The position numbers and the translations under genes were made by a program. A stretch of DNA of 33,057 bases from a virus (Duplodnaviria > Heunggongvirae > Uroviricota > Caudoviricetes). Location: positions 1 through 33,057 of IMG/VR virus record IMGVR_UViG_2897328257_000006; one strand, written 5' to 3'. Position 1 is the first letter of the stretch. Each line of letters starts with the position of its first letter. The notes beneath the pieces were generated by a model. It made no database searches. It was not told the origin of the DNA and saw only the letters and a list, made by a program, of their open reading frames with translations. Positions 8,640 to 32,739 of the stretch are shown here, piece by piece.

Positions 8640-8641
8640 CA

Positions 8642-9337: not shown

Positions 9338-9354
9338 CTAACAAGTATGACATA

Positions 9355-10146: not shown

Positions 10147-10149
10147 AAA

Positions 10150-12044: not shown

Positions 12045-12054
12045 TATTCCTCAC

Positions 12055-13486: not shown

Positions 13487-13490
13487 GGTT

Positions 13491-14470: not shown

Positions 14471-14536
14471 AACGGGAAGGATGCCGCCGGGTCATACCGG
14501 CGGCAATGTGACGATGAGGTGTCGGGAATGGCACAA

Positions 14537-15982: not shown

Positions 15983-16395
15983 GGTTTCCGCCCCTCAAGA
16001 CGCTGGCGGCAGGCCGTATGCATCAACCGGAAAAATAGCGACGCCACAAGATAAATCAGCGCGGTAAAAATCCACCCGGCGGCGACCAGCGAGATAAACG
16101 TCGCCACCATCACCACCAGACCCACCGCCCGTCTGCGCCACGGCACCGGCTGCAAAAACAGCGACGTGACAATCTTCACGGCCAGCGATTCCGGCGGCAG
16201 CTCCCGCCCGTAGCGTTCCAGCACATACTCAGTGGCATACACGCCGACACCACCGGCAACCACACAGATAACCATCGCCAGAATCGCCCAGGCAGCGACA
16301 AAATTGACGGCCACGCTCTGCGGGTAAATCAGGGACAGTGCCAGCATCAGCGCCAGCGACACATTCAGCATCAGTGAAAGGGATAATTTCTTCAT
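15970..16395 (-). CDS. lysA: LysA membrane protein (141 aa), lysis timing
   Basis: Multi-pass hydrophobic 141-aa ORF in the P2 lysis cassette position. Confidence 0.85.
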   Translation of the reverse strand: MKKLSLSLMLNVSLALMLALSLIYPQSVAVNFVAAWAILAMVICVVAGGVGVYATEYVLERYGRELPPESLAVKIVTSLFLQPVPWRRRAVGLVVMVATFISLVAAGWIFTALIYLVASLFFRLMHTACRQRLEGRKPCQG

Positions 16396-16409
16396 GGTGT
16401 TTACTCCGT

Positions 16410-16907
16410 TTAAGCCGGTACGCCGCCGGCGGTACGCCAGACGGTGACCAGTTTTTCCAGTGAATGCTCACGCTGACCGTAACCGGCACCCGGCAGGGAC
16501 GCCCAGATATTGCGACAGCGTGAAATGGCGCGCTCAATACGTCCCGCCCGGATGTCATCCAGCGCACCGCGTTCGCGGATCAACTGAATGGCGAGTCTGT
16601 CCTGTGACAACGGACTGAAATCCGGCAGGGCAAGCTGTTTGCGGTAATGCGGCCAGAACAGGTAAAGCTGCTGATAGCGACCGGAGGCCGTGGATTTTTC
16701 ACCGCGACGGTTAAACACCTTCGCCGGTCGGCCATGCGCGAACGGGTGGTCACTGTAGTCGGTGAAAATTTCCGGCTTCCCGTCCAGTCCGGTGACTATC
16801 ACGTCATAGCCCCGGTTTTTCGTCAGCGGATGATTCGCCGTCCCTTCGGACACGGCCAGCATGTCGAGAAAGGCGGCGATATTCTGGTGCGTGTTAATTA
16901 CCGGCAT
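16410..16907 (-). CDS. K: Endolysin K (165 aa)
   Basis: 165-aa ORF following the holin gene, as in P2. Confidence 0.88.
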   Translation of the reverse strand: MPVINTHQNIAAFLDMLAVSEGTANHPLTKNRGYDVIVTGLDGKPEIFTDYSDHPFAHGRPAKVFNRRGEKSTASGRYQQLYLFWPHYRKQLALPDFSPLSQDRLAIQLIRERGALDDIRAGRIERAISRCRNIWASLPGAGYGQREHSLEKLVTVWRTAGGVPA

Positions 16908-17188
16908 TACGGTTTCCCCCTGCCCTTAAAGCGGCGCTGAATGGCAATCTCAATCACCTGATAACCGGCGATACCCAGCATGGAGCCAATGCCGCACACC
17001 GCAGGCAGTGACAGGTCAGGAAACTGCACCAGAACAACACCGGCAACCATCGAGACAAAACCACCGAGCAACATGCGCCCGATAAACAGACGCGGGGTGA
17101 TGGGTTCACCACCGGCAAGCACCTTGCCGACAACAATCAGCACCCCAATCATGAAAAGCGACAGGACGCTTTTTTCTTCTGCTGTCAT
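16907..17188 (-). CDS. Y: Holin Y (93 aa)
   Basis: 93-aa ORF with two or three hydrophobic segments and a charged C-terminus (RRFKGRGKP); P2 position. Confidence 0.88.
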   Translation of the reverse strand: MTAEEKSVLSLFMIGVLIVVGKVLAGGEPITPRLFIGRMLLGGFVSMVAGVVLVQFPDLSLPAVCGIGSMLGIAGYQVIEIAIQRRFKGRGKP

Positions 17189-17191
17189 GCG

Positions 17192-17395
17192 TTACTCCCA
17201 CAGATTGACAGTTTCAGCCACGGGCGCGGTCTGAACGTCGGGCAGTTCGACGGCGGTGCCGTGTGGCAGCACCGCACCCAGTTCAGCCAGTCCCGGATTT
17301 GCGGCGAGCACGGCCTCAACCACGCCCTCAGTGCGCCCGTAATACCGGACACAAATGGCGTCGAGCGTGTCGCCCTGTAGCGCAAAGGCCTTCAT
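17192..17395 (-). CDS. X: Tail/head accessory protein X (67 aa)
   Basis: Internal ATG at 17395 gives MKAFALQGDTLDAICVRYYGRTEG... and the 67-aa P2 length; start overlaps the L stop (TAATG). Confidence 0.85.
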   Translation of the reverse strand: MKAFALQGDTLDAICVRYYGRTEGVVEAVLAANPGLAELGAVLPHGTAVELPDVQTAPVAETVNLWE

Positions 17396-17904
17396 TAGAT
17401 TTGACTCACGATGCAGCGCGGCTTGTCCTGGATGCGCGCCACCGCCCAGCGCATATCCCGCCACAGCTCATCAATGGTGCTGTCAATGCTGTCGGCCTTC
17501 TTGTCGCCTTTCGCACTGGCATCCACGCCGCGATAACGCTCATAAAGCGATGCGGTCGCCATCGCGCACACGGCGCGCTCGTAGTAAAAAACTTTGATGC
17601 TTTCACCGTCGATGTCGTCCGCCGGGACGTCCGCCAGACGCGTAAAACCGGCGGCAATTTTCTGTTCGCGGTACTCGTACAGCTCCGCATTCGTCTCCGC
17701 CATGCCTGACTTGATGGCCTCACGCAGACGGGCGGGGGCGACAGTCTGCTCAAGGCGCATACGTTCCCGGACGCGCTTCGGGTCGATATCGGGAAAAAAG
17801 AACGTGTTTTTAATCACCGGCTCGTCGCCTGCCGGTTGCGGGATGACCACCGTACCCTCACCGGACACGGGAGCCTCCTTTCGCGGAATAATCAGCGTCA
17901 TCAT
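17395..17904 (-). CDS. L: Head completion protein L (169 aa)
   Basis: ATG at 17904 preceded by GAGGTAG gives MMTLIIPRKEAPVSGEG... and the P2 length; the track ORF is 20 codons longer. Confidence 0.85.
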   Translation of the reverse strand: MMTLIIPRKEAPVSGEGTVVIPQPAGDEPVIKNTFFFPDIDPKRVRERMRLEQTVAPARLREAIKSGMAETNAELYEYREQKIAAGFTRLADVPADDIDGESIKVFYYERAVCAMATASLYERYRGVDASAKGDKKADSIDSTIDELWRDMRWAVARIQDKPRCIVSQI

Positions 17905-18003
17905 GACTACCTCTGAAAAGTCGGGCGGTGGACGCCGGTGCAGTGTCAGATGATTCACCCTCACTGACCGGCGTGCCGCCCTGGCGCGGGGCGCATTCGG
18001 TTG

Positions 18004-18747
18004 TTAACTGGCTTTCTTTTTCGGGCGTCCACGTTTTGCCGGTGTCGCACTCCGGGTCTTACGCGGGGCGCGGGTGGCCGCTTTTGGCTGCGGCTCCGGC
18101 TTCGGTTTCAGCTCCCGCTCCAGTCGTTCAATCTCTTTTTTGACGCCTGCCTGACAGTCGAGCTGTGTCGCACGTTGCAGGTGCGCCAGTGCCCCTGCGG
18201 CATCACCAGCGTCACGCAGAAACAGACCGGTGATTTTGTGCAGCTTTGCGCGCACTTCATCAGGCATGTCTGCCGTGGCGGTCAGTTCAAGGGTCTCCGT
18301 CAGCAGGCGGGGTTCCACGGATTCACCGGCAGCGTGAGCGCGCATGGCCGCAAGCGCCACCTCCTCGGTGAACATGTACGGCGGGGTACGGCGGTGTTTA
18401 CCCGGCATGGTCAGACCGTACTTCAGGGCATAACGGGCAATCTCCAGCGCACCGGCAATATCGCCGGTATCCAGACGCCACAGCATGACCGTCATCAGAA
18501 TGTCATCCTGTGCACCTTTGCCCTGCTCCAGCACACCGTTCACCCACGGCAACCAGAACGGCAGCAGTTCGCGCTTTTTCGCGGCCTTAAGCTCTTTTGA
18601 ATAAATTGCTTTCAGTGTGCGCTGGTCTGCGGCGAGCTTAACCAGCATCTGCTCATAGACAGTTGCATGTCGCAGCGGGGCGGCGTCCCGCTGCGCGGTC
18701 ATCGCTGCCGAGACCCGCATCATGTGGCGCTGTGCGGGACTCGTCAT
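18004..18747 (-). CDS. M: Terminase small subunit M (247 aa)
   Basis: 247-aa ORF in P2 synteny after N; basic C-terminal tail. Confidence 0.88.
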   Translation of the reverse strand: MTSPAQRHMMRVSAAMTAQRDAAPLRHATVYEQMLVKLAADQRTLKAIYSKELKAAKKRELLPFWLPWVNGVLEQGKGAQDDILMTVMLWRLDTGDIAGALEIARYALKYGLTMPGKHRRTPPYMFTEEVALAAMRAHAAGESVEPRLLTETLELTATADMPDEVRAKLHKITGLFLRDAGDAAGALAHLQRATQLDCQAGVKKEIERLERELKPKPEPQPKAATRAPRKTRSATPAKRGRPKKKAS

Positions 18748-18750
18748 CGG

Positions 18751-19824
18751 TTACGCTCCCGGCTCTGCGGTCGCTTTAGCCGGTGTGGAGAAATCACCGA
18801 CCTTAATTTTTTCCACCAGACAACCGGCGGCGTAGTCCTCCACCACGTAATCAATGTTCATTGACTCGTAGTTCTCCACGCGGTCGAGTTTCGGGTTTTC
18901 CTCAATCACGCGGCGATGGCTGTCATCCATGTAGTAGATGGACAGGTTTTCCAGCTTCGTGATGAGCATCGCATCCGCCGGGAAGTACGGGACGCGTACC
19001 GCTGGCAGGTTGCCGATGCGTTTCTGGCTGATGATGACGTCAGCGGCCAGCATTTCGCTGTTGTCCTGCTCCTTGTTGACGATGGGAAAATACTTGTCCG
19101 CCAGTAGCTGACGCCCCACAATCACCACAAGGTCAGGGTCTTCCTGATACCACGGTTCAATCAGGTTGTTGGTCGCATCCATCACCAGTGCATCAAGGCT
19201 GGCATAATCACCGCCCTTACCCACGCGGATGACCTCAGAGGTGGTGTGCCCTTCCTCGTCAGTGACCTTGCTCATCACGCGCGCCGGGGCTTCATTGCGG
19301 TATTTCTGCAGCCAGCCGACCGCCACATCCTGCAGCATCGGATTGCTGCTGCGGTCAGAGGTTTCGGCACGCGTCACGCCGTTAAAACCGGCCATGATGA
19401 AATCAAGGGACTGGCGTTTGATAATGGCGTTACGGATACGGAGCTGGAAATCCTGATAACGCGCCCACAGGTCCAGCGTTTTGTAGCGGATATAAAAATC
19501 GAAGTTAATCTGGTCGCATTCGTACTTGTTTGACGCCAGCTTCGAGAAGTCCTTCGGCTGACGCTCGGTGCCACCGGCGGTGTCGGTGGTGCTGGCGATG
19601 GAGCCGGTGACACCAATACCAATTTTTTCCCCTTTCATTTCGCTGACCGGCACAATGTTGATGCGGGTCAGAAAGTCAGAGGACTCCTGCATGGTGTTCA
19701 TCAGGGTCTGGGTGACCGACGGTTCAACGGTGAATTTTTTCGACACATCACCGGCGTCGATGCCGTTCAGTTCGGCAACACGGGACAGGTAGGCATTAAA
19801 TTTAAAGCGGGTTTCCTGGCGCAT
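18751..19824 (-). CDS. N: Major capsid protein N (357 aa)
   Basis: 357-aa ORF in P2 synteny after the scaffold gene O. Confidence 0.9.
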   Translation of the reverse strand: MRQETRFKFNAYLSRVAELNGIDAGDVSKKFTVEPSVTQTLMNTMQESSDFLTRINIVPVSEMKGEKIGIGVTGSIASTTDTAGGTERQPKDFSKLASNKYECDQINFDFYIRYKTLDLWARYQDFQLRIRNAIIKRQSLDFIMAGFNGVTRAETSDRSSNPMLQDVAVGWLQKYRNEAPARVMSKVTDEEGHTTSEVIRVGKGGDYASLDALVMDATNNLIEPWYQEDPDLVVIVGRQLLADKYFPIVNKEQDNSEMLAADVIISQKRIGNLPAVRVPYFPADAMLITKLENLSIYYMDDSHRRVIEENPKLDRVENYESMNIDYVVEDYAAGCLVEKIKVGDFSTPAKATAEPGA

Positions 19825-19882
19825 AGTTTTTCCTGAAATTAAGGGTTAATCGTGAAGGTTTTCCCGGACTGACTGACACCGG

Positions 19883-20737
19883 TCAGCAGTTCGTCATCAG
19901 GGCGTCACCGCCACCGCCGGTGGCCTTGCTGCGGCGCTGCTGGGTCAGACTTTCGGTGTGGTCGAGACTGTTTTTCAGGCGGGTGAATGCCTGGCTGGTT
20001 TCATCCGCTCTGTCAGTCACCTCCTGCTTAAGTGCGGAAAAAGCGGTTTCCATCTCAGCGAGGCGCTGCTCAGTGGCGCTCAGTTTTTCCTGCACATGTT
20101 CAGCAACAGCGGTCACCGCTTCATGCACGTCATTCAGACGGGCGTCATCGCTGGCCTGTTTGCGGCCAAAAATGGATTTCACCTTTTCGGTCAGGGCGGT
20201 GAACACGGTTTCAGGCAGGTCTTCAAATTCCAGCTCAACAGGCGTTGCCACTGAAATCAGGTTTTCAGGGCTTAATTTGAAGCGGTTCAGGGGGTTGTGT
20301 TTTGCCGTGCGGCAGAATTCCAGGTATTCCGTGCCGAGGCTTGCCGGGTCATCGGTGACGGCCAGCCCCACCAGATAACATTTGCCGGTGTTGGCAAAGT
20401 TCGGCTGAATTTCCATTGAGGTGTAGACCTTCTGCGCGGCCTTGTTCATCGCGATAAGGTCATCGGTCGGGGTGATTTTCGCAAACAGCGCCCATTTGCC
20501 TTTCAGCGCCGAATCATCGTCAATCTTTTCGGCCTTCAGTTCGGCCACATCGCCATAACGCTTAAAAATACCGTCAGGCAGGATGCCGCGCAGATGTTCC
20601 AGGTTAATGCGGCAACCATAGACTCGCGGGTCAAAGGTTTCGGCCATTTCCTGAATATCCTGCGCACTGATGACACGCCCGTCACAGGTGTCACCCTCAA
20701 CGCCGATACGAAAGAATTTTGAGACTTTTTTTGCCAT
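19883..20737 (-). CDS. O: Capsid scaffold protein O (284 aa)
   Basis: ATG at 20737 gives MAKKVSKFFRIGVEGDTCDG... and the P2 length of 284 aa; the track ORF extends further upstream. Confidence 0.88.
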   Translation of the reverse strand: MAKKVSKFFRIGVEGDTCDGRVISAQDIQEMAETFDPRVYGCRINLEHLRGILPDGIFKRYGDVAELKAEKIDDDSALKGKWALFAKITPTDDLIAMNKAAQKVYTSMEIQPNFANTGKCYLVGLAVTDDPASLGTEYLEFCRTAKHNPLNRFKLSPENLISVATPVELEFEDLPETVFTALTEKVKSIFGRKQASDDARLNDVHEAVTAVAEHVQEKLSATEQRLAEMETAFSALKQEVTDRADETSQAFTRLKNSLDHTESLTQQRRSKATGGGGDALMTNC

Positions 20738-20910
20738 TGTCAGGAGTCCTGAATAGTGATTAGAGGAGTCACATGTCGGCATCAGTTTCCCGACGATGCG
20801 CATCCTCCGCCATCAGTCCCGGATGGCTTATCACTGACACAACAGCACCTTAGCGAATCGCAGGGCGCGACTCAGTAGCCTTGCCGTGTATTCATCACGG
20901 CGAGGTATTC

Positions 20911-22683
20911 ATGACCATCACCACAGACACCACTCTTTTACACGACCCGCGTCGTCAGGCGGCGCTGCTGTACTGGCAGGGGTTTTCCGTGCCGCAGATT
21001 GCCGCCATGTTGCAGATGAAACGCCCGACGGTGCAGAGCTGGAAACAGCGCGACGGCTGGGACAGCGTTGCCCCCATCAGCCGTGTCGAAATGAGTCTGG
21101 AAGCGCGACTGACCCAGCTCATCATCAAACCGCAGAAAACCGGCGGTGACTTCAAGGAAATTGACCTGCTCGGACGCCAGATTGAACGACTGGCACGGGT
21201 CAACCGCTACAGTCAGACCGGCAACGAGGCAGACCTTAATCCGAACGTCGCTAACCGCAACAAAGGCGGGCGTCGCAAACCGAAAAAGAATTTTTTCAGT
21301 GACGAGGCCATCGAAAAGCTGGAGCAGATTTTCTTTGAGCAGTCTTTCGAATATCAGTTGCACTGGTATCGCGCCGGGCTTGAGCACCGCATCCGCGATA
21401 TCCTGAAATCCCGCCAGATTGGCGCGACGTTTTATTTTTCCCGCGAGGCGCTGCTGCGCGCCCTGAAAACCGGCCATAACCAGATTTTTCTGTCAGCCAG
21501 TAAAACGCAGGCGTATGTGTTCCGCGAATACATCATCGCCTTTGCCCGGCTGGTTGACGTTGACCTGACCGGTGACCCGATTGTCCTGGGCAATAACGGC
21601 GCAAAACTGATTTTTCTCGGCACCAACTCCAACACCGCGCAGAGCCATAACGGCGACCTGTACGTCGACGAGATTTTCTGGATCCCGAATTTTCAGGTAC
21701 TGCGTAAGGTGGCATCAGGTATGGCCTCACAGAGTCACCTGCGCTCGACCTATTTCTCCACCCCGTCCACGCTGGCGCACGACGCCTACCCGTTCTGGTC
21801 GGGTGAACTGTTTAACCGGGGACGCGCCAGCGCCGCCGAACGCGTGGAAATCGACGTCAGTCATAACGCCCTTGCCGGAGGTCTTCTCTGTGCGGACGGC
21901 CAGTGGCGGCAGATTGTCACCATTGAGGACGCCCTGAAAGGCGGCTGCACGCTGTTCGACATTGAGCAGCTCAAACGCGAAAACAGCGCCGACGATTTTA
22001 AAAACCTGTTCATGTGTGAATTTGTTGACGACAAGGCGTCGGTGTTCCCGTTCGAGGAGCTGCAACGCTGCATGGTCGACACGCTGGAAGAATGGGAAGA
22101 CTATGCGCCGTTTGCCGCAAATCCGTTCGGCTCCCGCCCGGTATGGATTGGTTACGACCCGTCACACCGTGGCGACAGCGCCGGATGCGTGGTACTGGCA
22201 CCGCCGGTGGTGGCCGGTGGCAAATTCAGAATACTTGAGCGTCACCAGTGGAAAGGCATGGACTTTGCCACCCAGGCTGAATCCATCCGCAAACTCACCG
22301 GAAAATACAACGTCGAATACATCGGAATTGATGCCACCGGCCTCGGTGTCGGCGTGTTCCAGCTCGTGCGCTCGTTCTATCCCGCCGCGCGTGATATCCG
22401 CTACACGCCGGAAATGAAAACCGCAATGGTGCTCAAGGCAAAAGACGTTATCCGCCGTGGCTGTCTGGAATACGACGTCAGCGCCACCGACATCACCAGC
22501 TCGTTTATGGCTATCCGCAAGACCATGACCAGCAGCGGACGCAGCGCCACCTATGAGGCCAGCCGCAGCGAGGAAGCCAGCCACGCCGACCTCGCCTGGG
22601 CGACCATGCACGCCCTGTTAAATGAGCCACTCACCGCCGGTATCAGCACCCCGCTGACATCCACCATTCTGGAGTTTTACTGA
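20911..22683 (+). CDS. P: Terminase large subunit P (590 aa)
   Basis: ATG at 20911 preceded by GAGG gives MTITTDTTLLHDPRRQAALLYWQGF... and 590 aa; stop overlaps the Q start (TGATG). Confidence 0.9.
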   Translation: MTITTDTTLLHDPRRQAALLYWQGFSVPQIAAMLQMKRPTVQSWKQRDGWDSVAPISRVEMSLEARLTQLIIKPQKTGGDFKEIDLLGRQIERLARVNRYSQTGNEADLNPNVANRNKGGRRKPKKNFFSDEAIEKLEQIFFEQSFEYQLHWYRAGLEHRIRDILKSRQIGATFYFSREALLRALKTGHNQIFLSASKTQAYVFREYIIAFARLVDVDLTGDPIVLGNNGAKLIFLGTNSNTAQSHNGDLYVDEIFWIPNFQVLRKVASGMASQSHLRSTYFSTPSTLAHDAYPFWSGELFNRGRASAAERVEIDVSHNALAGGLLCADGQWRQIVTIEDALKGGCTLFDIEQLKRENSADDFKNLFMCEFVDDKASVFPFEELQRCMVDTLEEWEDYAPFAANPFGSRPVWIGYDPSHRGDSAGCVVLAPPVVAGGKFRILERHQWKGMDFATQAESIRKLTGKYNVEYIGIDATGLGVGVFQLVRSFYPAARDIRYTPEMKTAMVLKAKDVIRRGCLEYDVSATDITSSFMAIRKTMTSSGRSATYEASRSEEASHADLAWATMHALLNEPLTAGISTPLTSTILEFY

Positions 22684-23717
22684 TGAGCAAGAAAAAAGGG
22701 AAAACACCGCAACCTGCGGCAAAAACAATGACCGCCAGCGCCCCGAAAATGGAGGCATTCACCTTTGGTGAGCCGGTGCCGGTACTCGACCGCCGTGACA
22801 TTCTGGATTACGTCGAGTGTATCAGTAACGGCAGATGGTATGAGCCACCGGTCAGCTTTACCGGTCTGGCAAAAAGCCTGCGTGCTGCCGTGCATCACAG
22901 CTCACCGATTTACGTCAAACGCAATATTCTGGCTTCAACGTTTATCCCGCACCCGTGGCTTTCGCAACAGGATTTCAGCCGCTTTGTGCTGGATTTTCTG
23001 GTGTTCGGTAATGCGTTTCTGGAAAAGCGATACAGCACCACCGGTAAGGTCATCAGACTGGAAACCTCACCGGCAAAATATACCCGCCGTGGTGTGGAAG
23101 AGGATGTTTACTGGTGGGTGCCGTCCTTCAACGAGCCGACAGCCTTCACGCCCGGCTCCGTGTTTCACCTGCTGGAGCCGGATATTAATCAGGAGCTGTA
23201 CGGCCTGCCGGAATATCTCAGCGCCCTTAATTCTGCCTGGCTGAATGAGTCGGCCACGCTGTTTCGCCGCAAGTATTACGAAAACGGCGCACATGCCGGA
23301 TACATCATGTACGTCACTGATGCCGTGCAGGATCGCAACGATATCGAAATGCTTCGCGAAAACATGGTGAAGTCGAAAGGCCGCAACAACTTTAAAAATC
23401 TGTTTCTCTATGCCCCGCAGGGGAAAGCCGACGGCATTAAAATTATCCCGCTCAGTGAAGTGGCAACGAAGGACGATTTTTTTAATATCAAAAAAGCCAG
23501 CGCCGCTGACCTGCTGGACGCGCACCGCATCCCCTTTCAGTTGATGGGCGGCAAGCCGGAGAACGTCGGGTCGTTGGGTGATATTGAGAAAGTGGCAAAG
23601 GTCTTTGTCCGCAATGAGCTTATCCCGCTACAGGACAGGATCCGCGAGATAAACGGCTGGCTCGGTCAGGAGGTCATCCGCTTTAAAAACTACTCACTGG
23701 ACACTGACAACGGCTGA
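22683..23717 (+). CDS. Q: Portal protein Q (344 aa)
   Basis: 344-aa ORF transcribed toward the cos site, as in P2. Confidence 0.9.
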   Translation: MSKKKGKTPQPAAKTMTASAPKMEAFTFGEPVPVLDRRDILDYVECISNGRWYEPPVSFTGLAKSLRAAVHHSSPIYVKRNILASTFIPHPWLSQQDFSRFVLDFLVFGNAFLEKRYSTTGKVIRLETSPAKYTRRGVEEDVYWWVPSFNEPTAFTPGSVFHLLEPDINQELYGLPEYLSALNSAWLNESATLFRRKYYENGAHAGYIMYVTDAVQDRNDIEMLRENMVKSKGRNNFKNLFLYAPQGKADGIKIIPLSEVATKDDFFNIKKASAADLLDAHRIPFQLMGGKPENVGSLGDIEKVAKVFVRNELIPLQDRIREINGWLGQEVIRFKNYSLDTDNG

Positions 23718-23886
23718 ACATCGCCGCCTGCGGGCGGCTTTTTTACACCCCGTCATCACGCCCTCACACGCTCACCTCCACGCAAAACAGCCCGCAGACA
23801 CACCGACGCCCCGGCACACAATCTAAACGCCATCACGACGCGCTGAGACGCCGAAAAAATAAAATCAGCACCACCGCCAGCGCGCA

Positions 23887-23905
23887 GTGCTTTCCCCGCC
23901 TCGCC
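23887..23905. other. cos site (19-nt cohesive end sequence)
   Basis: GTGCTTTCCCCGCCTCGCC is the reverse complement of the remembered P2 cohesive end GGCGAGGCGGGGAAAGCAC; lies between Q and the cargo locus. Confidence 0.8.
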
Positions 23906-24022
23906 CGCCCGCTTAATGGGGCGGTTTTAATGCGGGTGCATAACCACTTCTTACCCACATCAATTCTGGTCAAGCCAAGCAGTACAACTTATGATTTCAA
24001 GATGCAAACTCATGCAGCAATG

Positions 24023-25216
24023 TTAAATTCTGCATCCATCGGTTTGAAAATGTGATCCGTTTTTCGAATTCAAACTCAACTCTGTTTGACTCTTTTGAAC
24101 ATTAATAGTTTTACCAGTAAGGACATCCAAAACCCCTGCAGCAACAGCCTGCGCCAATTTACAAGGCACAGCATTCCCTATCTGACGCCAAATTGACGAA
24201 TTTTTCCCCACAAAGACATAATTACTCGGGAATGTTTGAATCAAAAGAGCCTCATCTATCGTTAGTCGACGTAAACGACTAGGTACATCGTGCATATCTT
24301 TTGGCTCACCACCATTCATTAGATGATTATGATAAGTCTCAACATAACTTGTTGAGCCATCATAAAGGTGTTCTTCATCAATAATTGGTGTCCTATTCCC
24401 CCCCATAGAAGCAGCTATAGTTGAAGCATACCCATTCGGGTTAATTGGTCTTCCCTGCCCGTTAAACATCATTCCCGCGTAAGGTGACTTCCGTAATACT
24501 GGCTTAGCAGCATTTGTAATCCTTGCATTACAGACTCTTGAATTGTTTGGATTACCCGCTCGCCCTAAAGGCCGAATAATCTCACCAACTGTGGGCGAAA
24601 GATATTGGTATTTTTTTATCGCCACCTCAACTCGTTTCACATCATTTTCGGAACGAAACCCTATAAAAAACATACGTTCCCTATTCTGAGGAACGCCAAA
24701 ATCTTTAGAATTCAGCACCAGCAAGGCTGAACGATAGCCTGACTTTTCAGCCATCTTAAACAGTTCACACCTAACTGGTTCAAATTTGGACAACTGTGCT
24801 AAAGCCTTAACATTCTCCATAACAAAGCATTCTGGTTGAATTATATCCACCGCCCGCATGAATGACATAACCAGCTTACTACGTGGATCATGAGCGTCCA
24901 TTTTCCCTGCCACAGAAAATCCTTGGCATGGAGGCCCACCAAAAACACAACCTATATTTTTCAGCCCAGACAATTCACTTAGCATCTCATCAATATCACC
25001 ACAAAAAACAGGTGATTCATGATTAAGCTTAAATGTATCACATGCATCCTTATCTATATCATTGGCCCAAACTGTTCGGAACCCGGCATTAGAGAAACCG
25101 ACATCCATCCCTCCTGCCCCAGTAAATAAGCTCACCGCTGAAATTTTGTTCACTTCTTTAGCACCAATTATTCGATTTTGGAATAAAACCAATGATAGGT
25201 AAGGATCGACACACAA
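24023..25216 (-). CDS. DNA (cytosine-5) methyltransferase of a type II R-M system; probable true start GTG at 25153 (376 aa)
   Basis: m5C-MTase motifs seen in order: FTGAGG (I), PPCQGFS (IV), ENV (VI), QNRER (VIII), GNAVP (X). The track ORF uses a TTG that overlaps the divergent controller ORF; the GTG at 25153 gives MNKISAVSLFTGAGG. Confidence 0.85.
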   Translation of the reverse strand: MCVDPYLSLVLFQNRIIGAKEVNKISAVSLFTGAGGMDVGFSNAGFRTVWANDIDKDACDTFKLNHESPVFCGDIDEMLSELSGLKNIGCVFGGPPCQGFSVAGKMDAHDPRSKLVMSFMRAVDIIQPECFVMENVKALAQLSKFEPVRCELFKMAEKSGYRSALLVLNSKDFGVPQNRERMFFIGFRSENDVKRVEVAIKKYQYLSPTVGEIIRPLGRAGNPNNSRVCNARITNAAKPVLRKSPYAGMMFNGQGRPINPNGYASTIAASMGGNRTPIIDEEHLYDGSTSYVETYHNHLMNGGEPKDMHDVPSRLRRLTIDEALLIQTFPSNYVFVGKNSSIWRQIGNAVPCKLAQAVAAGVLDVLTGKTINVQKSQTELSLNSKNGSHFQTDGCRI

Positions 25217-25506
25217 TCAATCACCTTCTAAACCACATGGCAAAACGACAACCAACTATACATGATCATAGATACAGGTGCCTAGTCCAGCTTCTCACCA
25301 AACTACGCAAAGAAGCTTCTCTTTCGCAGTCAGAATTGGCCATTTTTCTAGGATTATCACAATCAGATATATCTAAAATCGAAAGCTTTGAAAGGCGATT
25401 AGATGCTTTAGAACTATTTGAATTATTAGAGGTGGTTGCAAGCCGATTAGGTCTACCAATGGATATCTTACTAAAGGACACCTATGAAAGTATTAGTAAA
25501 TCATGA
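25192..25506 (+). CDS. Controller (C) protein, XRE-type helix-turn-helix regulator (89-104 aa depending on start)
   Basis: HTH-like segment LSQSELAIFLGLSQSDISKIE; divergent from the MTase and overlapping the start of the downstream endonuclease ORF, the usual C-R arrangement. Alternative start ATG at 25237. Confidence 0.65.
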   Translation: MIGKDRHTINHLLNHMAKRQPTIHDHRYRCLVQLLTKLRKEASLSQSELAIFLGLSQSDISKIESFERRLDALELFELLEVVASRLGLPMDILLKDTYESISKS

Positions 25507-26539
25507 GCAAGCCTATAATGTAATTATAAATGCAATCAACGATGCAAAAAAATTAACTGATTACAAAACAAATAATCAATGGGTCTCCATTCAAAATGTA
25601 ATTTTAGGCACCCACCTTACATACAGATATATACTTATTACTGGTTTACTTGCTAAAGCAACAGACCCTAGAGTAAACCCTCTGGCTTTACAAGCTAATG
25701 CCCCCGTAGACGGAGCCTATGATGCAAGAAGTTTATGTCATTCGGTAATAGTAGGCAAAGTAGAAGGCCCATTTTTAGAGGGTAAGTTAGGCGCATCAAA
25801 TGAGCCATTTCTAAATAAACCAGCTCGTTACATGCTCCACTCCTCTGATAACCCTGTGCGCAGAGGAAATGATAAGGTTTTACAACAACTTTCAATTGAT
25901 ATATTACATGCAGCAACAACCCAAATCTTAGCTTATGAAATGCTTGTTATTGCATTATATTTTACCCTACAGCGAACCAATAGAGTTATAACGCCGAACT
26001 CAATTAATTTTGATTTCCATAAGATTATTTATAATATTATATCTCATCCTTGTGATGGAGAAACATGCGCGATTGCTGCCGCAATTTCGTTACACTTATT
26101 AGGTGAACAAAGAGGATGGATAATAAAAGCACATCCCGTCAATCAGGCCGGTAGCTCCTCAAAAGAGATACTGGACATAGATGTATATCATGATGATATA
26201 GTTTTCCTTTCTATAGAAGTGAAAGACAAACCATTTAATTATCAAGATGTTAATCACGCCGTTTCAAAAGCATCTGCATCCGGGATTTCAAAAGTTATCT
26301 TCCTTAAAGGGCCAAGAGCAACAAACTTAGATATTGATGAGTCTATTGCGATTGAGAACGCTGCGACAAAAGGTGTTTCACTAAGCTTTAGTGACGTCAT
26401 GACATTCACAACAACATGTTATGCGTTATCGCCACTATTAAGTAATGACAGAATAATAGATTTCATAAATAACACTTTAAAAGACATCAGAGCTAAAGAT
26501 AGCACTATAGAATACATACAATCCATATTTAAAAATTAA
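25484..26539 (+). CDS. Putative type II restriction endonuclease (351 aa)
   Basis: Position downstream of and overlapping the C gene, opposite the MTase; candidate PD-(D/E)xK-like element in DIDVYHDDIVFLSIEVKDK; AAGGA RBS; AT-rich. Enzymatic identity is inferred from context, not proven. Confidence 0.6.
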   Translation: MKVLVNHEQAYNVIINAINDAKKLTDYKTNNQWVSIQNVILGTHLTYRYILITGLLAKATDPRVNPLALQANAPVDGAYDARSLCHSVIVGKVEGPFLEGKLGASNEPFLNKPARYMLHSSDNPVRRGNDKVLQQLSIDILHAATTQILAYEMLVIALYFTLQRTNRVITPNSINFDFHKIIYNIISHPCDGETCAIAAAISLHLLGEQRGWIIKAHPVNQAGSSSKEILDIDVYHDDIVFLSIEVKDKPFNYQDVNHAVSKASASGISKVIFLKGPRATNLDIDESIAIENAATKGVSLSFSDVMTFTTTCYALSPLLSNDRIIDFINNTLKDIRAKDSTIEYIQSIFKN

Positions 26540-26546
26540 TACTCCC

Positions 26547-26581
26547 GGGACAATATAGTTCACAACTACGTTGTCCCTTTT
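26547..26581 (+). terminator. Hairpin GGGACAA/TTGTCCC plus TTTT downstream of the putative endonuclease gene
   Basis: 7-bp stem with 17-nt loop followed by a T-run, in the convergent gap between the endonuclease and A genes. Confidence 0.45.
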
Positions 26582-26632
26582 AAAACAGTCAAGCAATTGC
26601 ATTATATTAATTATTTACTTTTTATCACAATC

Positions 26633-28945
26633 TCATAATTCATACGCTCTCCAATCACATATAACAGGATAACTGAAGCTTCTCCCGTCGTAATTTACAG
26701 TTGCCCCACGCGCCAGCGCCTCAAGCTCCCATCGCTGCGGCCTGATACCGTTCTGAGCAAGATCAACGCGGATACGGGTAATTTGCATTCTTTCCGACCG
26801 GGTCAGTCTGGCCGATGGTGCAATTTCATGAGGTTTTAACGGGCTTCCGTTTCTTTGCTGACGACTTGGCGTTCTCCGACCGTGTTTTAATGCACCTCTG
26901 AGCGCCCTCACGACCTCCGGGTCACTCCATTCGATAACACCGTCATCAACCAGATTAAGCACTGCTGCGGCGTGCTCAGAAGGTGTGGGAGCCGGTAACA
27001 AAGTATCACCACCGGTGAGTTTTCCACACTTATTGACAGGACTCCGAGGCGCGGCGATGCCGCTTTTTAAAGTCAAAGGCTCAACGACCGGAACTTTCGG
27101 CACAATGCGCCAGTCCGTCGTTCTGGTGATATGAATATGACGCGCGCCGAGATGCGGCGCGTAAATGCCGACCACTCTCTCGACTTCTTCCTCATACTCG
27201 TTAACGTCATCCGACGGGCTACGGGCAACCCTGACAGTCTGACAATCGCGCGGGACATTTGCCCCACCCTGCGCGCTGATATACAACGCAAAATCACCAC
27301 TGTCTGCGGCAGCGCGAGCAGCCTCGACGCGTTCGTCAAACTCATCCGCAATACTGACGCCGCGAGGCAATTTGCGTAGTTCACGGTAAGCCCCCATTGT
27401 CGGCAGTCCAACCGTTTTAAATTGCGGGATGCGCCACGTTGACGCCCATGCGGTAACAGCCGCCGCAGTATCTTTCAGCGGTCTGCCGGTATCGTTATCG
27501 AGCTGACCATCCAGTGCATAGCCGTCGATATTTTTTGAAATGTATTTCGCGATATATCCCGCAGCACCGCCCCGGTTAAGGTGTTTTGCCTGAAAACGGT
27601 TTCGCGCGGCTCCTCTTTCGTCGCCATCCTCTTTGAGCGCATAGCGACGCATGATTTCGATAATCTGGTTACGCTGGCGTGGATTACAAAAAAGCATCAT
27701 ATGCCAGTGCGGCGTTCCGTCGTGGTGTGGCTCGACGACTCGCAAACCGTAGACCTGTAAATCATTATCCTTGAATGCCGTGCGCATCAGGCTCCAGATA
27801 CGGCAGAGATAACGCTGCGCATCCTTTGGATTAAATGCCTCATCATTCCAGCCGTGATTAAGCTGGACGGTTTTATTTTCGCCTTTTCCAACCTGACGTG
27901 TCGGGTGATACTTTGACGGCGCGGTAAGCGTGATAAACATCCCCACATCACCCTCTGAGGCGGCGTAACGCTCAATACCGGCAATGGTGTTCATCAGCTC
28001 CATCCGGCGAATTTCAGGATTAGAAATACTGCCCATCACCTTACTGATAAGGTCGATGCGCTCGCCGGTTTCCCTGTTTTCAAGGTCACACGATTTAAGA
28101 AATTCCAGATTTGCCTGGCGGCGCGCACGCTCATCACGAATGGCATGTTTACTGGCATAAGGAGAACGGTCTTTATTCACCTCCCCGACAGCAATCAGTA
28201 ACGCCTCATGCCAGCGCATACGCTGGCCTTTAAGCTGATGAGTCCACCACTCATCGTTAAACAGACGGGCAATGGCAGAATATGCCTGCCTCGTGGTCAT
28301 CTGTCCTTTACGGTATTTTTTCCAGTAGAGAGGGGAAATATTGAAAGCACGTGCAGCGCCAGCAACATGACCATAGAGGTGAGCCTGCGCCTCATCCGTA
28401 AACAGCGATTCTTTCTCGCCATGCGCATCCACCCAGGCATCGCAGAGTTCCTCATACATCATGAAAAGCTGTGATGAGATACGGGCGGCAAACTTTTTCA
28501 GCTCCTTGTCATTCATCCCCGGCAGGCGCGCATACTGGTCGCGCTCTGCCAGAAACAGCAACGACGCGTCGGTGTTCATTTCATGGCGCTGATTCACACG
28601 CTCAATGCGCGGCCATAAACGACGCTGAAAAGTGGATGTGAGGAAATAAAACCCGTGCACCGGGCTTTTATTGCGCCGGATGTAGTCATAGCGTGAAGTA
28701 AACAGCGAGCGCAAAAAGTAAGGCAGGCGGTTAATCGTGGATAAAACACCTTGCACCTGACGCATCTCGTCACGTGTAAGGGGTCTTTCGCGCCCGACGG
28801 CCTCGCGTGGCGCGTTCCATGCATAAGCACCGGTAAACGCCTTACCGGTGCCTGCAGCAAATGCTGACGGAGGGACAAAACGCCCGGAGGCTTTAACGGC
28901 CATATGAGCCAAAAGCCTCTGAACAACGCCTGCTGAGTTGCTCAA
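26633..28945 (-). CDS. A: Replication initiation protein A (rolling-circle nickase; about 756-770 aa)
   Basis: Large ORF in the P2 A position and of P2 gpA size; start may be the internal ATG at 28903 (MAVKASGRF...). Confidence 0.88.
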   Translation of the reverse strand: MSNSAGVVQRLLAHMAVKASGRFVPPSAFAAGTGKAFTGAYAWNAPREAVGRERPLTRDEMRQVQGVLSTINRLPYFLRSLFTSRYDYIRRNKSPVHGFYFLTSTFQRRLWPRIERVNQRHEMNTDASLLFLAERDQYARLPGMNDKELKKFAARISSQLFMMYEELCDAWVDAHGEKESLFTDEAQAHLYGHVAGAARAFNISPLYWKKYRKGQMTTRQAYSAIARLFNDEWWTHQLKGQRMRWHEALLIAVGEVNKDRSPYASKHAIRDERARRQANLEFLKSCDLENRETGERIDLISKVMGSISNPEIRRMELMNTIAGIERYAASEGDVGMFITLTAPSKYHPTRQVGKGENKTVQLNHGWNDEAFNPKDAQRYLCRIWSLMRTAFKDNDLQVYGLRVVEPHHDGTPHWHMMLFCNPRQRNQIIEIMRRYALKEDGDERGAARNRFQAKHLNRGGAAGYIAKYISKNIDGYALDGQLDNDTGRPLKDTAAAVTAWASTWRIPQFKTVGLPTMGAYRELRKLPRGVSIADEFDERVEAARAAADSGDFALYISAQGGANVPRDCQTVRVARSPSDDVNEYEEEVERVVGIYAPHLGARHIHITRTTDWRIVPKVPVVEPLTLKSGIAAPRSPVNKCGKLTGGDTLLPAPTPSEHAAAVLNLVDDGVIEWSDPEVVRALRGALKHGRRTPSRQQRNGSPLKPHEIAPSARLTRSERMQITRIRVDLAQNGIRPQRWELEALARGATVNYDGRSFSYPVICDWRAYEL

Positions 28946-29168
28946 CCTGCGCGTTTAAATCAGCAAAAGACTTTGCGCTTCCGGTCAGAATATCGTGATG
29001 CATCAGGCCGGAAACGAGCTGGCTTAATTTCGGATAATAACCAACCACCGCCAGCCATTCCTGACCGGCGTTTTTACCGCTTTCCGCTCTCTTTTTCTCG
29101 TGGAGAATAAACTGAAAGCTGTCACTGGTAACGACATAACGTTCGCCAATTTCAATACGAATACTCAT
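28893..29168 (-). CDS. Hypothetical protein (P2 orf83 position), 91 aa
   Basis: Small ORF in conserved P2 order between orf82 and A. Confidence 0.6.
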   Translation of the reverse strand: MSIRIEIGERYVVTSDSFQFILHEKKRAESGKNAGQEWLAVVGYYPKLSQLVSGLMHHDILTGSAKSFADLNAQVEQLSRRCSEAFGSYGR

Positions 29169-29389
29169 GCCGTTCTCCGGTAATGTTTGTTTTTTGCTTC
29201 AAAGACTGACTGGCAGGAAACACAATGCGTGGCTGACGGATAAGCCGCACGACGGGCAGCAGGTATTGGCGCGTTACACTCTTCGCAAACCAGCGCAGAA
29301 GCACCGCAATGTTTTACCCTTGCCGCGTTAATCTGACGCTCCAGTAATTCAGCCTGTTGTTCCTGAATAAAATCTACGTTGTCCGGCAT
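29165..29389 (-). CDS. TraR/DksA-type C4 zinc-finger protein (P2 orf82 position), 74 aa
   Basis: CEECNAPIP...HCVSCQ four-cysteine motif typical of TraR/DksA-family zinc fingers. Confidence 0.7.
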   Translation of the reverse strand: MPDNVDFIQEQQAELLERQINAARVKHCGASALVCEECNAPIPAARRAAYPSATHCVSCQSVFEAKNKHYRRTA

Positions 29390-29694
29390 TACCAGCTCCT
29401 TTTGTCGTTAAGTTTTTTAAATTCATCAGCGCAATAGCTGGCAATTTCTGTCGTTAATTTCGTCAGTTCATCCACGGAGGAGATTTGCTTGTGAAATACA
29501 GCGCGTTTAACAAGTAAATTGACCACATCAGACAGGAGATTTAATTCGTTCTGATAAATCGCGATAACAGACTCAGTTATTTCGCGTTTTTCTTTATCAA
29601 GACCAAGTTGAATAAGAGATAAATCGCCATTTTTCATAACGGTGATTTTTAAGGCGTTATTCAGTAATACAACTGAACGAGAACAGGACATCAA
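29389..29694 (-). CDS. Hypothetical protein (P2 orf81 position), 101 aa
   Basis: Small ORF in conserved P2 order; start overlaps the upstream stop. Confidence 0.6.
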
Positions 29695-29948
29695 AGCACC
29701 TCCCCGCGAGACAATCCGATATTGTGAAATTTTTCCGACTCCTGACTGAGCAGCTCGACTATCTCCACGCGGGATAACTCCGCCTTTGTGATGTGGCGAA
29801 TCATGGCGTCAAGATGAGAAGAAAAGCGCGTCGCTGCATCGGCCTGTGCTTCGGTTCTGGCCTGTTGCAGCAGTAATGCGTATTTACCGCACTGATTTTC
29901 AGAAACTGTATGCATGACTTTCTCCAGGCAAAAAGAAGCCCCGCACAA
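29691..29948 (-). CDS. Hypothetical protein (P2 orf80 position), 74-85 aa
   Basis: Small ORF in conserved P2 order; alternative start at MHTVSENQ. Confidence 0.55.
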
Positions 29949-29978
29949 TTAAGTGCGTTAAAAACTCTGGTTAATTAC

Positions 29979-30485
29979 TTAATGCAGATATTGCTCTGGT
30001 TTTACCGATGTCAGAATTGTCGGTGCATACTCAAACAGACTGAATAATTCACGTAATGCACGGAATAAAGCATCACGCCAGTAACATGATTCCTCATTAA
30101 TTCGCCAGTATGGCTGGTTAAATTCTTTTTCTGTCAGTCGTGCGTGCATAAATAAAGTACGGCGCTGACTGACTGTTAAAAAACTAATATATGCATACTC
30201 ACTTGCGCCAACCTGACGGCGTTTTGAGAATGCCCCACGCAATTCATCAATTGCACAAACCAGTCGTTCACGTTCGACGTCGTTCATTTCTTCAAAACGC
30301 ATCGTTGCGTGACGCTGTTTTAACTGCGCATGAAAGCAAACCGTTAGCCGTTCGCGTTCCATCATCTGATTATAATAATCGCATGTCTCCTGCCAGCGAG
30401 GGACGGCCAGATGCTTACCAATTATCCGGCGCATAGTTGCTGGCTGTTTTTCAACGAGATTGAGCGTCATCACTGTCATTTCCAT
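29979..30485 (-). CDS. B: Replication protein B (helicase-loader-like), about 163-168 aa
   Basis: ORF of P2 gpB size in the P2 position between orf78 and orf80. Confidence 0.8.
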   Translation of the reverse strand: MEMTVMTLNLVEKQPATMRRIIGKHLAVPRWQETCDYYNQMMERERLTVCFHAQLKQRHATMRFEEMNDVERERLVCAIDELRGAFSKRRQVGASEYAYISFLTVSQRRTLFMHARLTEKEFNQPYWRINEESCYWRDALFRALRELFSLFEYAPTILTSVKPEQYLH

Positions 30486-30670
30486 ACCCTCCGGCTTTTC
30501 AGAAAGGTCAGAGCCTTTTTTAACGGACTCTGTTTTTTGGTGCGGATAATGATTCCCTTACGCCCCTTACCGTGGGTGATGGTGAAGTCAATCGCCCTGG
30601 GGCTTTCGTTACGCAGTAACTGAGCAATACAACGAGGTTCATTCATACGGTTCTCCTTAACGTGGTTCAC
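30476..30670 (-). CDS. Small basic hypothetical protein (P2 orf78 position), 56-64 aa
   Basis: Small ORF between cox and B in P2 order. Confidence 0.5.
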   Translation of the reverse strand: MNHVKENRMNEPRCIAQLLRNESPRAIDFTITHGKGRKGIIIRTKKQSPLKKALTFLKSRRVWK

Positions 30671-30932
30671 CGAGACCTAACCACATCAACCAGCCGTCAC
30701 GAATCTCTTTAGGGCGGCTTTCATAAGCCAGTTTTAGTCCGTTATTCCATGCCGGAAGGTATACCCAATATTCACCTGCACGACCTGAAGCTGATTGTGG
30801 ATCGGTCATATCAATTACAGGCAGCTTTCCTTTATCGATCATCCGACGAACCGCTCCTGTCGATTTTCCTATTAGTTTTGCGAACTCCTGATAAGGAATC
30901 GCATCAGTCATGAGTGTTACTTGCTTGCTCAT
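30657..30932 (-). CDS. cox: Cox, excisionase and repressor of the lysogenic promoter (91 aa)
   Basis: MSKQVTLMTDAIPYQEFAKLIGKSTGAVRRMIDKGKLPVIDMTDP... matches P2 Cox and its 91-aa length; divergent from C. Confidence 0.9.
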   Translation of the reverse strand: MSKQVTLMTDAIPYQEFAKLIGKSTGAVRRMIDKGKLPVIDMTDPQSASGRAGEYWVYLPAWNNGLKLAYESRPKEIRDGWLMWLGLGEPR

Positions 30933-31013
30933 GTCGTCCTCCAGCCCTCATGAATTGCGTTTAATGCCTTATAATGCCTTTTAGTGCACACATCCAAGCA
31001 CTAAACAATCTAC

Positions 31014-31043
31014 ATCTAAACTAAATACTATTGAGATCTAAAC
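31014..31043. promoter_or_regulatory. Immunity operator: two 8-bp direct repeats ATCTAAAC (31014..31021 and 31036..31043), 22 bp centre to centre
   Basis: Repeats seen directly in the cox-C intergenic region beside the C start; P2 C repressor is known to bind two direct repeats flanking the early promoter -10; the exact site sequence is not confirmed from memory. Confidence 0.55.
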
Positions 31044-31046
31044 ACC

Positions 31047-31346
31047 ATGTCAAACACGATAAGCGAGAAGATAGTCTTAATGCGAAAATCAGAGTATTTG
31101 AGCAGACAACAACTTGCTGATTTAACAGGGGTTCCGTATGGCACGCTGAGTTACTATGAAAGTGGTCGTTCAACACCTCCAACAGATGTCATGATGAACA
31201 TCCTGCAGACCCCACAATTCACCAAATACACTTTATGGTTCATGACCAATCAGATCGCTCCTGAGTCCGGGCAAATTGCGCCCGCTCTCGCACACTTTGG
31301 GCAAAACGAAACAACGTCGCCCCACTCCGGTCAAAAGACTGGTTAA
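31047..31346 (+). CDS. C: Immunity repressor C (99 aa)
   Basis: MSNTISEKIVLMRKSEYLSRQQLADLTGVPYGTLSYYESGRSTPP... matches the P2 C repressor and its 99-aa length. Confidence 0.92.
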   Translation: MSNTISEKIVLMRKSEYLSRQQLADLTGVPYGTLSYYESGRSTPPTDVMMNILQTPQFTKYTLWFMTNQIAPESGQIAPALAHFGQNETTSPHSGQKTG

Positions 31347-31461
31347 CAATTCATCGTGAATATATTCATCACAAGTGCCTACTATTGGTGGCTAAATTTC
31401 AGCCACCACGAAAAAAGCGATTAGTAGTCGCCAAAAAACACACCACTCGGAGGGTTTTCTG

Positions 31462-32475
31462 ATGGCAATCAAAAAACTCGATGATGGTCGATATGAAGTG
31501 GACATCCGCCCTACTGGACGTAATGGAAAACGCATCCGTAGGAAGTTTGATAAGAAAAGCGAAGCTGTCGCTTTCGAGAAATACACGTTGTACAACCACC
31601 ACAATAAAGAATGGCTATCAAAACCAACAGACAAGCGACGTCTGTCGGAGCTGACACAGATCTGGTGGGATTTAAAGGGTAAACACGAAGAGCATGGGAA
31701 ATCTAATCTTGGAAAAATTGAAATCTTCACAAAAATAACGAATGACCCATGCGCATTTCAAATTACGAAATCGCTTATCAGCCAGTACTGCGCCACCCGA
31801 AGAAGTCAGGGTATTAAACCTTCGAGTATCAATCGTGATTTAACATGTATTAGCGGCATGTTTACAGCCCTGATTGAAGCGGAGTTATTCTTTGGTGAGC
31901 ACCCTATCAGAGGGACAAAAAGGCTTAAGGAGGAAAAACCAGACACAGGCTATCTCACGCAGGAAGAAATTGCCTTACTGCTTGCTGCTCTTGACGGCGA
32001 CAATAAAAAGATTGCGATTCTTTGCCTGAGTACTGGAGCAGGTTGGGGAGAAGCAGCTCGTTTGAAAGCAGAAAATATCATCCATAACCGCGTCACGTTT
32101 GTTAAAACGAAAACAAACAAACCACGCACCGTCCCGATCTCAGAGGCTGTTGCCAAAATGATCGCGGATAACAAACGAGGTTTTTTATTCCCTGATGCTG
32201 ATTACCCTCGCTTCAGACGAACAATGAAAGCAATAAAACCGGATTTGCCAATGGGGCAAGCCACACATGCACTAAGGCACAGCTTTGCCACTCATTTCAT
32301 GATTAATGGAGGAAGTATTATCACGCTACAACGGATACTAGGTCACACGCGGATTGAACAAACTATGGTTTACGCTCATTTTGCGCCAGAGTACCTTCAG
32401 GACGCCATTTCTCTTAATCCGCTAAGAGGTGGTACTGAGGCCGAGAGTGTCCACACAGTGTCCACAGTAGAGTAA
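31462..32475 (+). CDS. int: Tyrosine integrase (337 aa)
   Basis: MAIKKLDDGRYEVDIRPTGRNGKRIRRKF... with C-terminal catalytic region HALRHSFATHF...LGHTRIEQTMVYAHF (R..HxxR..Y); 337 aa as in P2 Int; 3' end 80 bp from the att core. Confidence 0.95.
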   Translation: MAIKKLDDGRYEVDIRPTGRNGKRIRRKFDKKSEAVAFEKYTLYNHHNKEWLSKPTDKRRLSELTQIWWDLKGKHEEHGKSNLGKIEIFTKITNDPCAFQITKSLISQYCATRRSQGIKPSSINRDLTCISGMFTALIEAELFFGEHPIRGTKRLKEEKPDTGYLTQEEIALLLAALDGDNKKIAILCLSTGAGWGEAARLKAENIIHNRVTFVKTKTNKPRTVPISEAVAKMIADNKRGFLFPDADYPRFRRTMKAIKPDLPMGQATHALRHSFATHFMINGGSIITLQRILGHTRIEQTMVYAHFAPEYLQDAISLNPLRGGTEAESVHTVSTVE

Positions 32476-32554
32476 CGTTTAAGGGCTTTCAGTGGTAATT
32501 TATGCCGCTCAAACCCGCATTGTACCGTTGAAAGCCCCTACTGGTGACACCCTA

Positions 32555-32582
32555 AATCTCCCTTACACGGGCTTATTTTTTA
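32555..32582. repeat. att core copy 2 (prophage int-proximal junction / host flank)
   Basis: Exact 28-bp repeat of 1507..1534. Confidence 0.9.
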
Positions 32583-32739
32583 TGCATAAGCCCTATCCCT
32601 GGTCACCGTCTTCCATTGACCACATCGATAGAATCTCCCTTCATAGCACGATGCCTTTCACGTAACGGCATCGTGCTCGCACAGGTTCCGGCTAAGCACA
32701 ACCAGAACGCGCATGTTTGACGCTTACCAAAAAATATTC

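Follow-up and report, generated by a model that had tools for sequence, protein, structure and literature searches.

Probable EcoT38I restriction-modification cassette in the gpA-gpQ hotspot of a defective P2-type prophage

We analyzed 33,057 nucleotides of viral DNA (positions 1 to 33,057 of IMG/VR record IMGVR_UViG_2897328257_000006; hereafter, the window) and found a P2-type prophage with a three-gene restriction-modification (R-M) cassette between its cos site and replication gene A. We are highly confident that this cassette is the EcoT38I Type IIP R-M system, a non-essential cargo of the gpA-gpQ hotspot near cos. The endonuclease, R, is identical at 349 of 351 residues to the protein of PDB entries 7E8R and 7EDB, whose molecule name is 'EcoT38I restriction endonuclease'; the controller protein, C, matches PDB 2EF8, an E. 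coli 'Putative transcription factor', at 84 of 84 residues; and the methyltransferase, M, matches UniProt Q83VT0, a 363-aa methyltransferase filed under Peduovirus P2, at 361 of 363. Crystal structures of both R and C are already deposited under these accessions. An earlier reading, made from the sequence alone, had suggested that the locus could be the EcoT38I system of Kita and colleagues, and these identities support the suggestion; we found no evidence that contradicts it. The system is already known, and nothing about it is new in kind.

Kita, Kawakami and Tanaka (2003, J Bacteriol 185:2296) reported the EcoT38I R-M genes in a P2 prophage between genes A and Q, which is where the cassette lies in the window. 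Compared with EcoT38I of E. coli TH38, the window encodes the three proteins at 99-100% identity, sets M head-to-head with C-R and overlaps C with R in the same way, and carries the genes at the same place, between A and Q of a P2 prophage that is likewise defective. Within the genes the differences are allelic only (I148T and I288L in R, V198A in M, and a stop codon changed to Lys, which lengthens M by 13 aa); the two prophages differ in their pattern of decay, that of the window having an FI-T deletion.

Location and gene products of the cassette

The cassette and its borders comprise the following features.
23887..23905, no strand: P2 cos, 19-nt cohesive end, the left edge of the cargo hotspot (base-for-base match to cosR/cosL of NC_001895)
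23940..26665, no strand: AT-rich (35-42% GC) cargo segment of about 2.7 kb in the gpA-gpQ hotspot (breaks in P2 homology and drop in GC)
24023..25153, minus strand: ecoT38IM, m5C DNA methyltransferase, 376 aa from GTG 25153 (PF00145, TIGR00675, identity to Q83VT0)
25237..25506, plus strand: ecoT38IC, controller, 89-aa Xre-type helix-turn-helix (HTH) protein (HTH_3, PADLOC, identity to 2EF8)
25484..26539, plus strand: ecoT38IR, Type IIP restriction endonuclease, 351 aa, SacI family (PF09566, identity to 7E8R)
26547..26581, plus strand: Rho-independent terminator-like hairpin with a U-tract after R (fold dG -15.7 kcal/mol, z = -4.8, 0 of 200 shuffles as good)

Perfect P2 att cores at 1507-1533 and 32555-32581 delimit the prophage, and its left flank is a peptidase U32 (yegQ-like) host gene, consistent with P2 locI. 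From portal gene Q (22683-23717) the order runs through cos and the cassette to gene A (26633-28945). On the cos side, similarity to P2-like phages ends at about 23936-23948, some 35-45 bp past cos; it restarts at about 26668 within the 3' end of A, where the right edge of the cargo replaces the final ~10 codons. Because P2 homology ends past cos and resumes in A, we delimit the cargo as the roughly 2.7 kb at the position that orf91/tin/old occupy in reference P2. GC content is 0.34-0.44 over 24000-26800, vs 0.50-0.59 in the flanks. Alignment to P2 and base composition thereby confirm what had been read from the sequence alone, namely cos at 23887..23905, identical to the P2 cohesive end, followed by an AT-rich module that takes the place of orf91/tin/old as far as the 3' end of A; the end coordinate proposed for that module, 26581, is the end of the terminator hairpin after R. 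Rousset et al. (2022, PMC9122126) catalogued gpA-gpQ as a defence hotspot that occurs 18,150 times in E. coli and holds 169 systems there.

The prophage is defective: at position 5710 it is missing 1,656 bp that are present in an intact relative, an EcoT38I-carrying prophage (L001, positions 2058-3713). The deletion takes the C-terminal end of sheath FI, the tube gene FII, E and E', and the N-terminal end of tape measure T, and it leaves a 728-aa T fragment overlapped by a 291-aa sheath fragment (open reading frames, ORFs, 3592..5778 and 5705..6580).

M, first called as a minus-strand ORF at 24023..25216, matches PF00145 (E = 1.7e-66, profile positions 2-320 of 324) and TIGR00675 (5e-59). As the sequence-only reading had recognized, its translation carries the m5C methyltransferase motifs I (FTGAGG), IV (GPPCQGFS), VI (ENV), VIII (QNRERMFFIG) and X (GNAVP) in canonical order. 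Relative to the prototype it has V198A and a change of TAA to AAA (Lys) at 24062-24064 that adds 13 aa (KNGSHFQTDGCRI). The prototype and strain 64 carry TAA at the equivalent position, and both stop-codon forms are common in public assemblies; the exact 397-aa ORF product, read-through extension included, occurs on 150 contigs.

RefSeq (PGAP) starts M at a TTG equivalent to 25216, giving 397 aa (annotation in L001 at 21217). We rejected this form in favor of the 376-aa product from GTG 25153, the position at which the start aligns among relatives (ATG in two of them, L006 and L007); on that alignment TTG 25216 is probably not the true start. A published table of rare codons in EcoT38I (PMC6456624) has AUA at codon 15 of R and GGG at codons 12 and 15 of M. 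The window agrees with it, carrying the AUA codon in R and, if M is counted from GTG 25153, both GGG codons at those positions. The same start leaves 330 nt between the M and R starts. The abstract published by Kita and colleagues in 2003 is said to give 330 nt as the intergenic figure.

C is a small HTH gene (HTH_3, E = 1.8e-6; PADLOC 'Control_protein', 2e-4) that lies just upstream of R in the same orientation, with a conserved symmetric site upstream of it, as befits an R-M controller. It was first called as a 104-aa ORF at 25192..25506 (plus strand), a form we rejected for the 89-aa product from ATG 25237, the conserved MAKR start in an alignment of five C proteins (the window and four relatives). 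The divergent HTH controller seen in the sequence-only reading therefore stands, with its start moved to 25237. Identity to 2EF8 extends over residues 6-89 (21-104 of the long ORF); the PDB title of 2EF8 is reportedly C.EcoT38IS. Similarity to C.BclI and C.AhdI is only distant (E = 0.02-0.06), and C.EcoT38I is among the REBASE C proteins with a predicted upstream site (PMC2632904).

R is a full-length member of the SacI family (PF09566 RE_SacI, E = 1.9e-76, 258 bits vs a Pfam gathering cut-off of 19.3, profile positions 4-276 of 276). PADLOC labels the three genes MTase_II, Control_protein and REase_II, matching the REase model end to end at 830 bits; among NCBIfam models there is none for R. 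The two residues that differ from 7E8R both lie in variable alignment columns, and the exact R sequence is present on 75 contigs. A confident structural model (pLDDT 91) has an N-terminal helical domain and a C-terminal alpha-beta-beta-beta-alpha-beta core, and its best non-self structural matches are the nuclease domains of BspD6I, FokI and LlaBIII. Residues E193, D231, D233, E245 and K247 are invariant in 37 homologues; the core fold, the acidic residue of strand 2 and the (D/E)xK of strand 3 place R in the PD-(D/E)xK superfamily. In the 351-aa ORF that it saw overlapping the controller's 3' end, an overlap we find to be 23 nt, the sequence-only reading had picked out HDD...EVK as a possible catalytic element. 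E245-V-K247 was right; HDD (residues 236-238) falls in a variable stretch, and we rejected it as the acidic motif, the conserved acidic half being D231/D233.

We take the EcoT38I recognition site to be GRGCY^C, as reportedly given in REBASE and in the 2003 work of Kita and colleagues; the SacI site, GAGCT^C, is a subset of it, and EcoT38I would differ from SacI in being relaxed at positions 2 and 5. Some SacI-family members also differ from EcoT38I in being encoded without a C gene, for example that of L011. The papers naming EcoT38I that we consulted list Kita et al. 2003 in their references or name the system once, and none gives its site or regulation.

A regulatory region shared with diverged relatives

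At the locus, the m5C methyltransferase and the SacI-family endonuclease are both intact and the C protein comes with a conserved symmetric site; the arrangement of the three genes is shared with relatives. We compared it with the loci of eight diverged relatives of R (40-74% identical), found in Enterobacter, Pseudescherichia, Yersinia, Serratia, Pseudoalteromonas, Psychrobacter, Vibrio and Neokomagataea. An m5C methyltransferase gene adjoins R in each, and seven of them, with R identity as low as 40%, keep M divergent from C-R and the overlap of C and R. This supports the controller-type layout, a C-R operon divergent from M, that had been proposed for the window from its sequence. The Neokomagataea locus (L011) is without C.

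Three candidate regulatory elements lie between the divergent genes.
25168..25186, no strand: candidate C-box operator, perfect 19-bp palindrome TTATTC-GATTTTG-GAATAA (placed between divergent M and C-R; conservation)
25192..25220, minus strand: candidate M promoter, -35 TTGATT at 25220-25215, 17-nt spacer, -10 TATCAT at 25197-25192 (consensus scan, 9/12)
25179..25207, plus strand: candidate weak C-R promoter, -35 TTGGAA at 25179-25184, 17-nt spacer, -10 AAGGAT at 25202-25207 (conserved block)

The palindrome is found in all seven C-bearing relatives with its GATTTTG spacer unchanged and is absent from the C-less L011. Its arms vary symmetrically, as ATATTC/GAATAT in Yersinia, Serratia and Vibrio and ATATGC/GCATAT in Pseudoalteromonas; the sole exception is Psychrobacter, in which one arm differs (ATATTC/GCATAT). 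The -10 block of the candidate M promoter is conserved in relatives, and the transcription start predicted from it lies inside the palindrome. For C-R, the candidate -35 overlaps the right arm of the palindrome, and the AA..AT pattern is invariant in the alignment; the promoter scan did not call this plus-strand candidate, and a weak promoter at 25179-25207 is a speculative assignment. The RefSeq start of M and the 104-aa C ORF are probably both too long, because operator and promoters would then fall inside coding sequence.

These positions suggest how the system could be timed. M.EcoT38I would methylate cytosine-5 within the recognition site and so protect host DNA, and the homodimeric PD-(D/E)xK enzyme R.EcoT38I would cut unmethylated sites, restricting incoming foreign DNA. 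Timing would be set by C.EcoT38I, a dimeric Xre-type HTH protein whose gene shares a transcript and a translational overlap with R. We infer that its dimers bind the single 19-bp palindrome at 25168-25186. Because of where the palindrome lies, one bound site could act in both directions: it would cover the M transcript start and hinder transcription of M, and it would overlap the -35 of the weak C-R promoter, where it could help RNA polymerase. As C accumulated, C-R would be switched on and M turned down, such that a new host would make M first, and R once C had built up. Kita and colleagues are said to have reported in 2003 that C activates R and represses M. Operator occupancy, both promoter positions, the direction of regulation and the recognition sequence are all predictions in this scheme.

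The system works like a classical C switch with a different class of operator. It shares with the PvuII, AhdI and Esp1396I switches a small HTH dimer encoded just upstream of R and co-transcribed with it, an operator upstream of C, and the logic of delayed R expression in a new host. It differs from them in that its C is distantly related, in the single 6-N7-6 palindrome with an invariant GATTTTG spacer, and in an operator that spans the divergent M promoter, through which C could repress M directly. The double C-box of the PvuII class is 35 bp long, with two operator copies, a central GTG and complementary trinucleotides at its flanks (PMC2632904). Here conservation is confined to the single 19-bp palindrome. 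The alignment shows neither a second operator copy nor a central GTG, hence no double C-box of the PvuII type, and we rejected a near-palindrome at 25204-25222, which is not conserved.

The surroundings of four relatives were also noted. The Pseudescherichia relative (L006, 3573..6053) stands directly beside a yegQ-like peptidase U32 gene, and no P2-family domain was found among the genes called in its 11-kb locus, which may be the remnant of a locI prophage. In Yersinia aldovae the cassette (L007, 3575..6349) lies next to ogr, in a P2-like prophage but at its opposite end. The Serratia relative, 57% identical, adjoins gpA. The Vibrio locus (L012, 2239..3035) has an extra HTH gene, with a related palindrome of its own, between M and C.

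Distribution of the cassette and other features of the prophage

At an identity of at least 99.5%, the cassette is present in 20 of 5,426 complete E. coli genomes, chromosomal in every case. In the one carrier whose context was inspected, it belongs to a P2-like prophage that occupies another attachment site, beside pflA. Exact cassette proteins occur on hundreds of contigs, Salmonella included. None of 50,697 sequenced phage records contains the cassette, the sole match being a 150-bp cos flank. One chromosome, NZ_CP075640.1 (E. coli S19-141), matches the window at 100% identity in the two stretches that were compared. In four complete chromosomes of E. coli (NZ_CP075640.1, NZ_CP146507.1, NZ_CP062876.1 and NZ_AP027697.1 are examples) the cassette has the identical coordinates 2284-4904; these records seem to begin at P2 gene A or close to it, and the shared coordinates may be an artefact of assembly rotation.

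The prophage has further variable regions. The second P2 cargo site (the Z/fun position) lies between the truncated sheath gene and gene G for tail-fibre assembly, and it holds three closely packed ORFs in one orientation, at 7306..9337 on the plus strand. They encode a ParA/MinD-like ATPase of 276 aa (AAA_31, 1.4e-37; phrog_164) and proteins of 168 and 231 aa (phrog_12497 and phrog_12265) that have no Pfam or PADLOC match; PADLOC gave no meaningful match for the cassette, which is present in 133 of the 5,426 complete E. coli genomes and may be an uncharacterised defence or exclusion cassette. In the region of tail-fibre gene H (10150..12149), one ORF (11373..12044) encodes an N-terminal collar domain of 223 aa and a second (10150..11376) a distal part of 408 aa. 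Positions 6671-12149 of the window share no homology with L001, which carries an invertase-switchable fibre module there.

Role of the cassette and avoidance of its site by P2

The same genes could serve mainly themselves, as a post-segregational-killing (addiction) module that keeps a defective prophage in the chromosome, with anti-phage defence secondary. The intact R-M genes have been retained in a prophage with a 1,656-bp deletion, as such a role would predict, and tightly C-controlled Type II systems belong to a class with documented addiction behaviour. Work by Naito, Kusano and Kobayashi in 1995 reportedly described such behaviour for Type II R-M systems. Addiction does not, however, exclude defence, and the cargoes of the gpA-gpQ hotspot that have been tested protect against phages (PMC9122126). 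Moreover, with GRGCYC as the site, lambda has 7 cleavable sequences, and restriction of foreign phages is to be expected. We regard a chiefly selfish role as unlikely, if the best placed of the alternatives.

A second alternative concerns the allele. R differs from the crystallised enzyme at two residues and M reads through the prototype stop codon, and either change might have inactivated the system or shifted its specificity, leaving what is effectively an orphan methyltransferase. Both changes in R are conservative, however, and spare every invariant residue, all three ORFs are full length, and the recurrence of the exact R and of the 397-aa M product across contigs indicates that these forms are maintained in populations; a decayed system is very improbable. 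As for the case in which the sequence-only reading would have been wrong, that of a Vsr-like or unrelated 351-aa protein beside a solitary phage anti-restriction methylase, nothing but the want of an NCBIfam model could be set on its side, and full-length PF09566 membership, near-identity to 7E8R and a PD-(D/E)xK fold with its motif invariant make R an intact SacI-family nuclease and leave that case next to no probability.

Identification as EcoT38I has its own points to answer. No public entry names M or C as EcoT38I, the name is absent from protein-cluster annotations, and 2EF8 and Q83VT0 are linked to EcoT38I by taxon and date, not by name. The recognition sequence, the 330-nt figure, and activation of R with repression of M by C are all taken as reported background. 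The allele departs from the prototype at two residues of R and one of M, besides the 13-aa extension of M; activity in this strain is presumed, and the promoter positions and binding by C are predicted from sequence. These points temper the identification and do not contradict it: the locus can be labelled ecoT38IM/C/R, a label that matters little beyond correct annotation. The conserved TTATTC-GATTTTG-GAATAA offers a concrete operator candidate for a C protein of solved structure (2EF8).

As defence cargo, EcoT38I has counterparts in the EcoO109I R-M system of P4-like satellites (Kita et al. 1999) and in old/tin of P2, all of them carried by elements of the P2/P4 group beside a shared cos, at hotspots described in PMC9122126. 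The products of old and tin differ in being exclusion proteins, encoded by other genes and acting by other mechanisms, and EcoO109I differs in its specificity and in its host element.

Taking GRGCYC as the recognition site, we counted it in these phages. There is none in the window prophage (1600..32700; the window's only site, at 1294, is in a host gene), none in reference P2, where 26.6 +/- 4.7 are expected, and none in satellite P4, where 11.0 +/- 3.1 are expected. A cdt-carrying P2-like phage and L001, the second of the two EcoT38I-carrying prophages examined, also have none; lambda has 7, with 41 expected. The non-palindromic pair GAGCCC/GGGCTC is absent as well; of 1,378 pairs expected at least 12 times, it is one of only 6 that are missing. 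P2 is without 12-15 of the 64 palindromic hexamers, and words with GGCC, GGNCC or GATC are among those absent. We rejected the lack of sites in the prophage as evidence for the specificity of the cassette, since cassette-free P2 lacks them too and many palindromes are avoided.

If GRGCYC is the site, the P2 backbone is intrinsically immune to the enzyme it carries. It is possible, and we put it forward only tentatively, that the P2/P4 lineage was pre-adapted to this cassette, in which case EcoT38I would be a kin-sparing weapon against unrelated phages that never acts on P2 relatives or P4 satellites, even unmethylated ones. Were this true, with avoidance driven by GRGCYC-specific enzymes that travel with P2-like phages, any P2 backbone could gain the cassette without risk of self-restriction. 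For competition among mobile elements, the absence of GRGCYC from P2 and P4 suggests that this cargo spares its own phage family.

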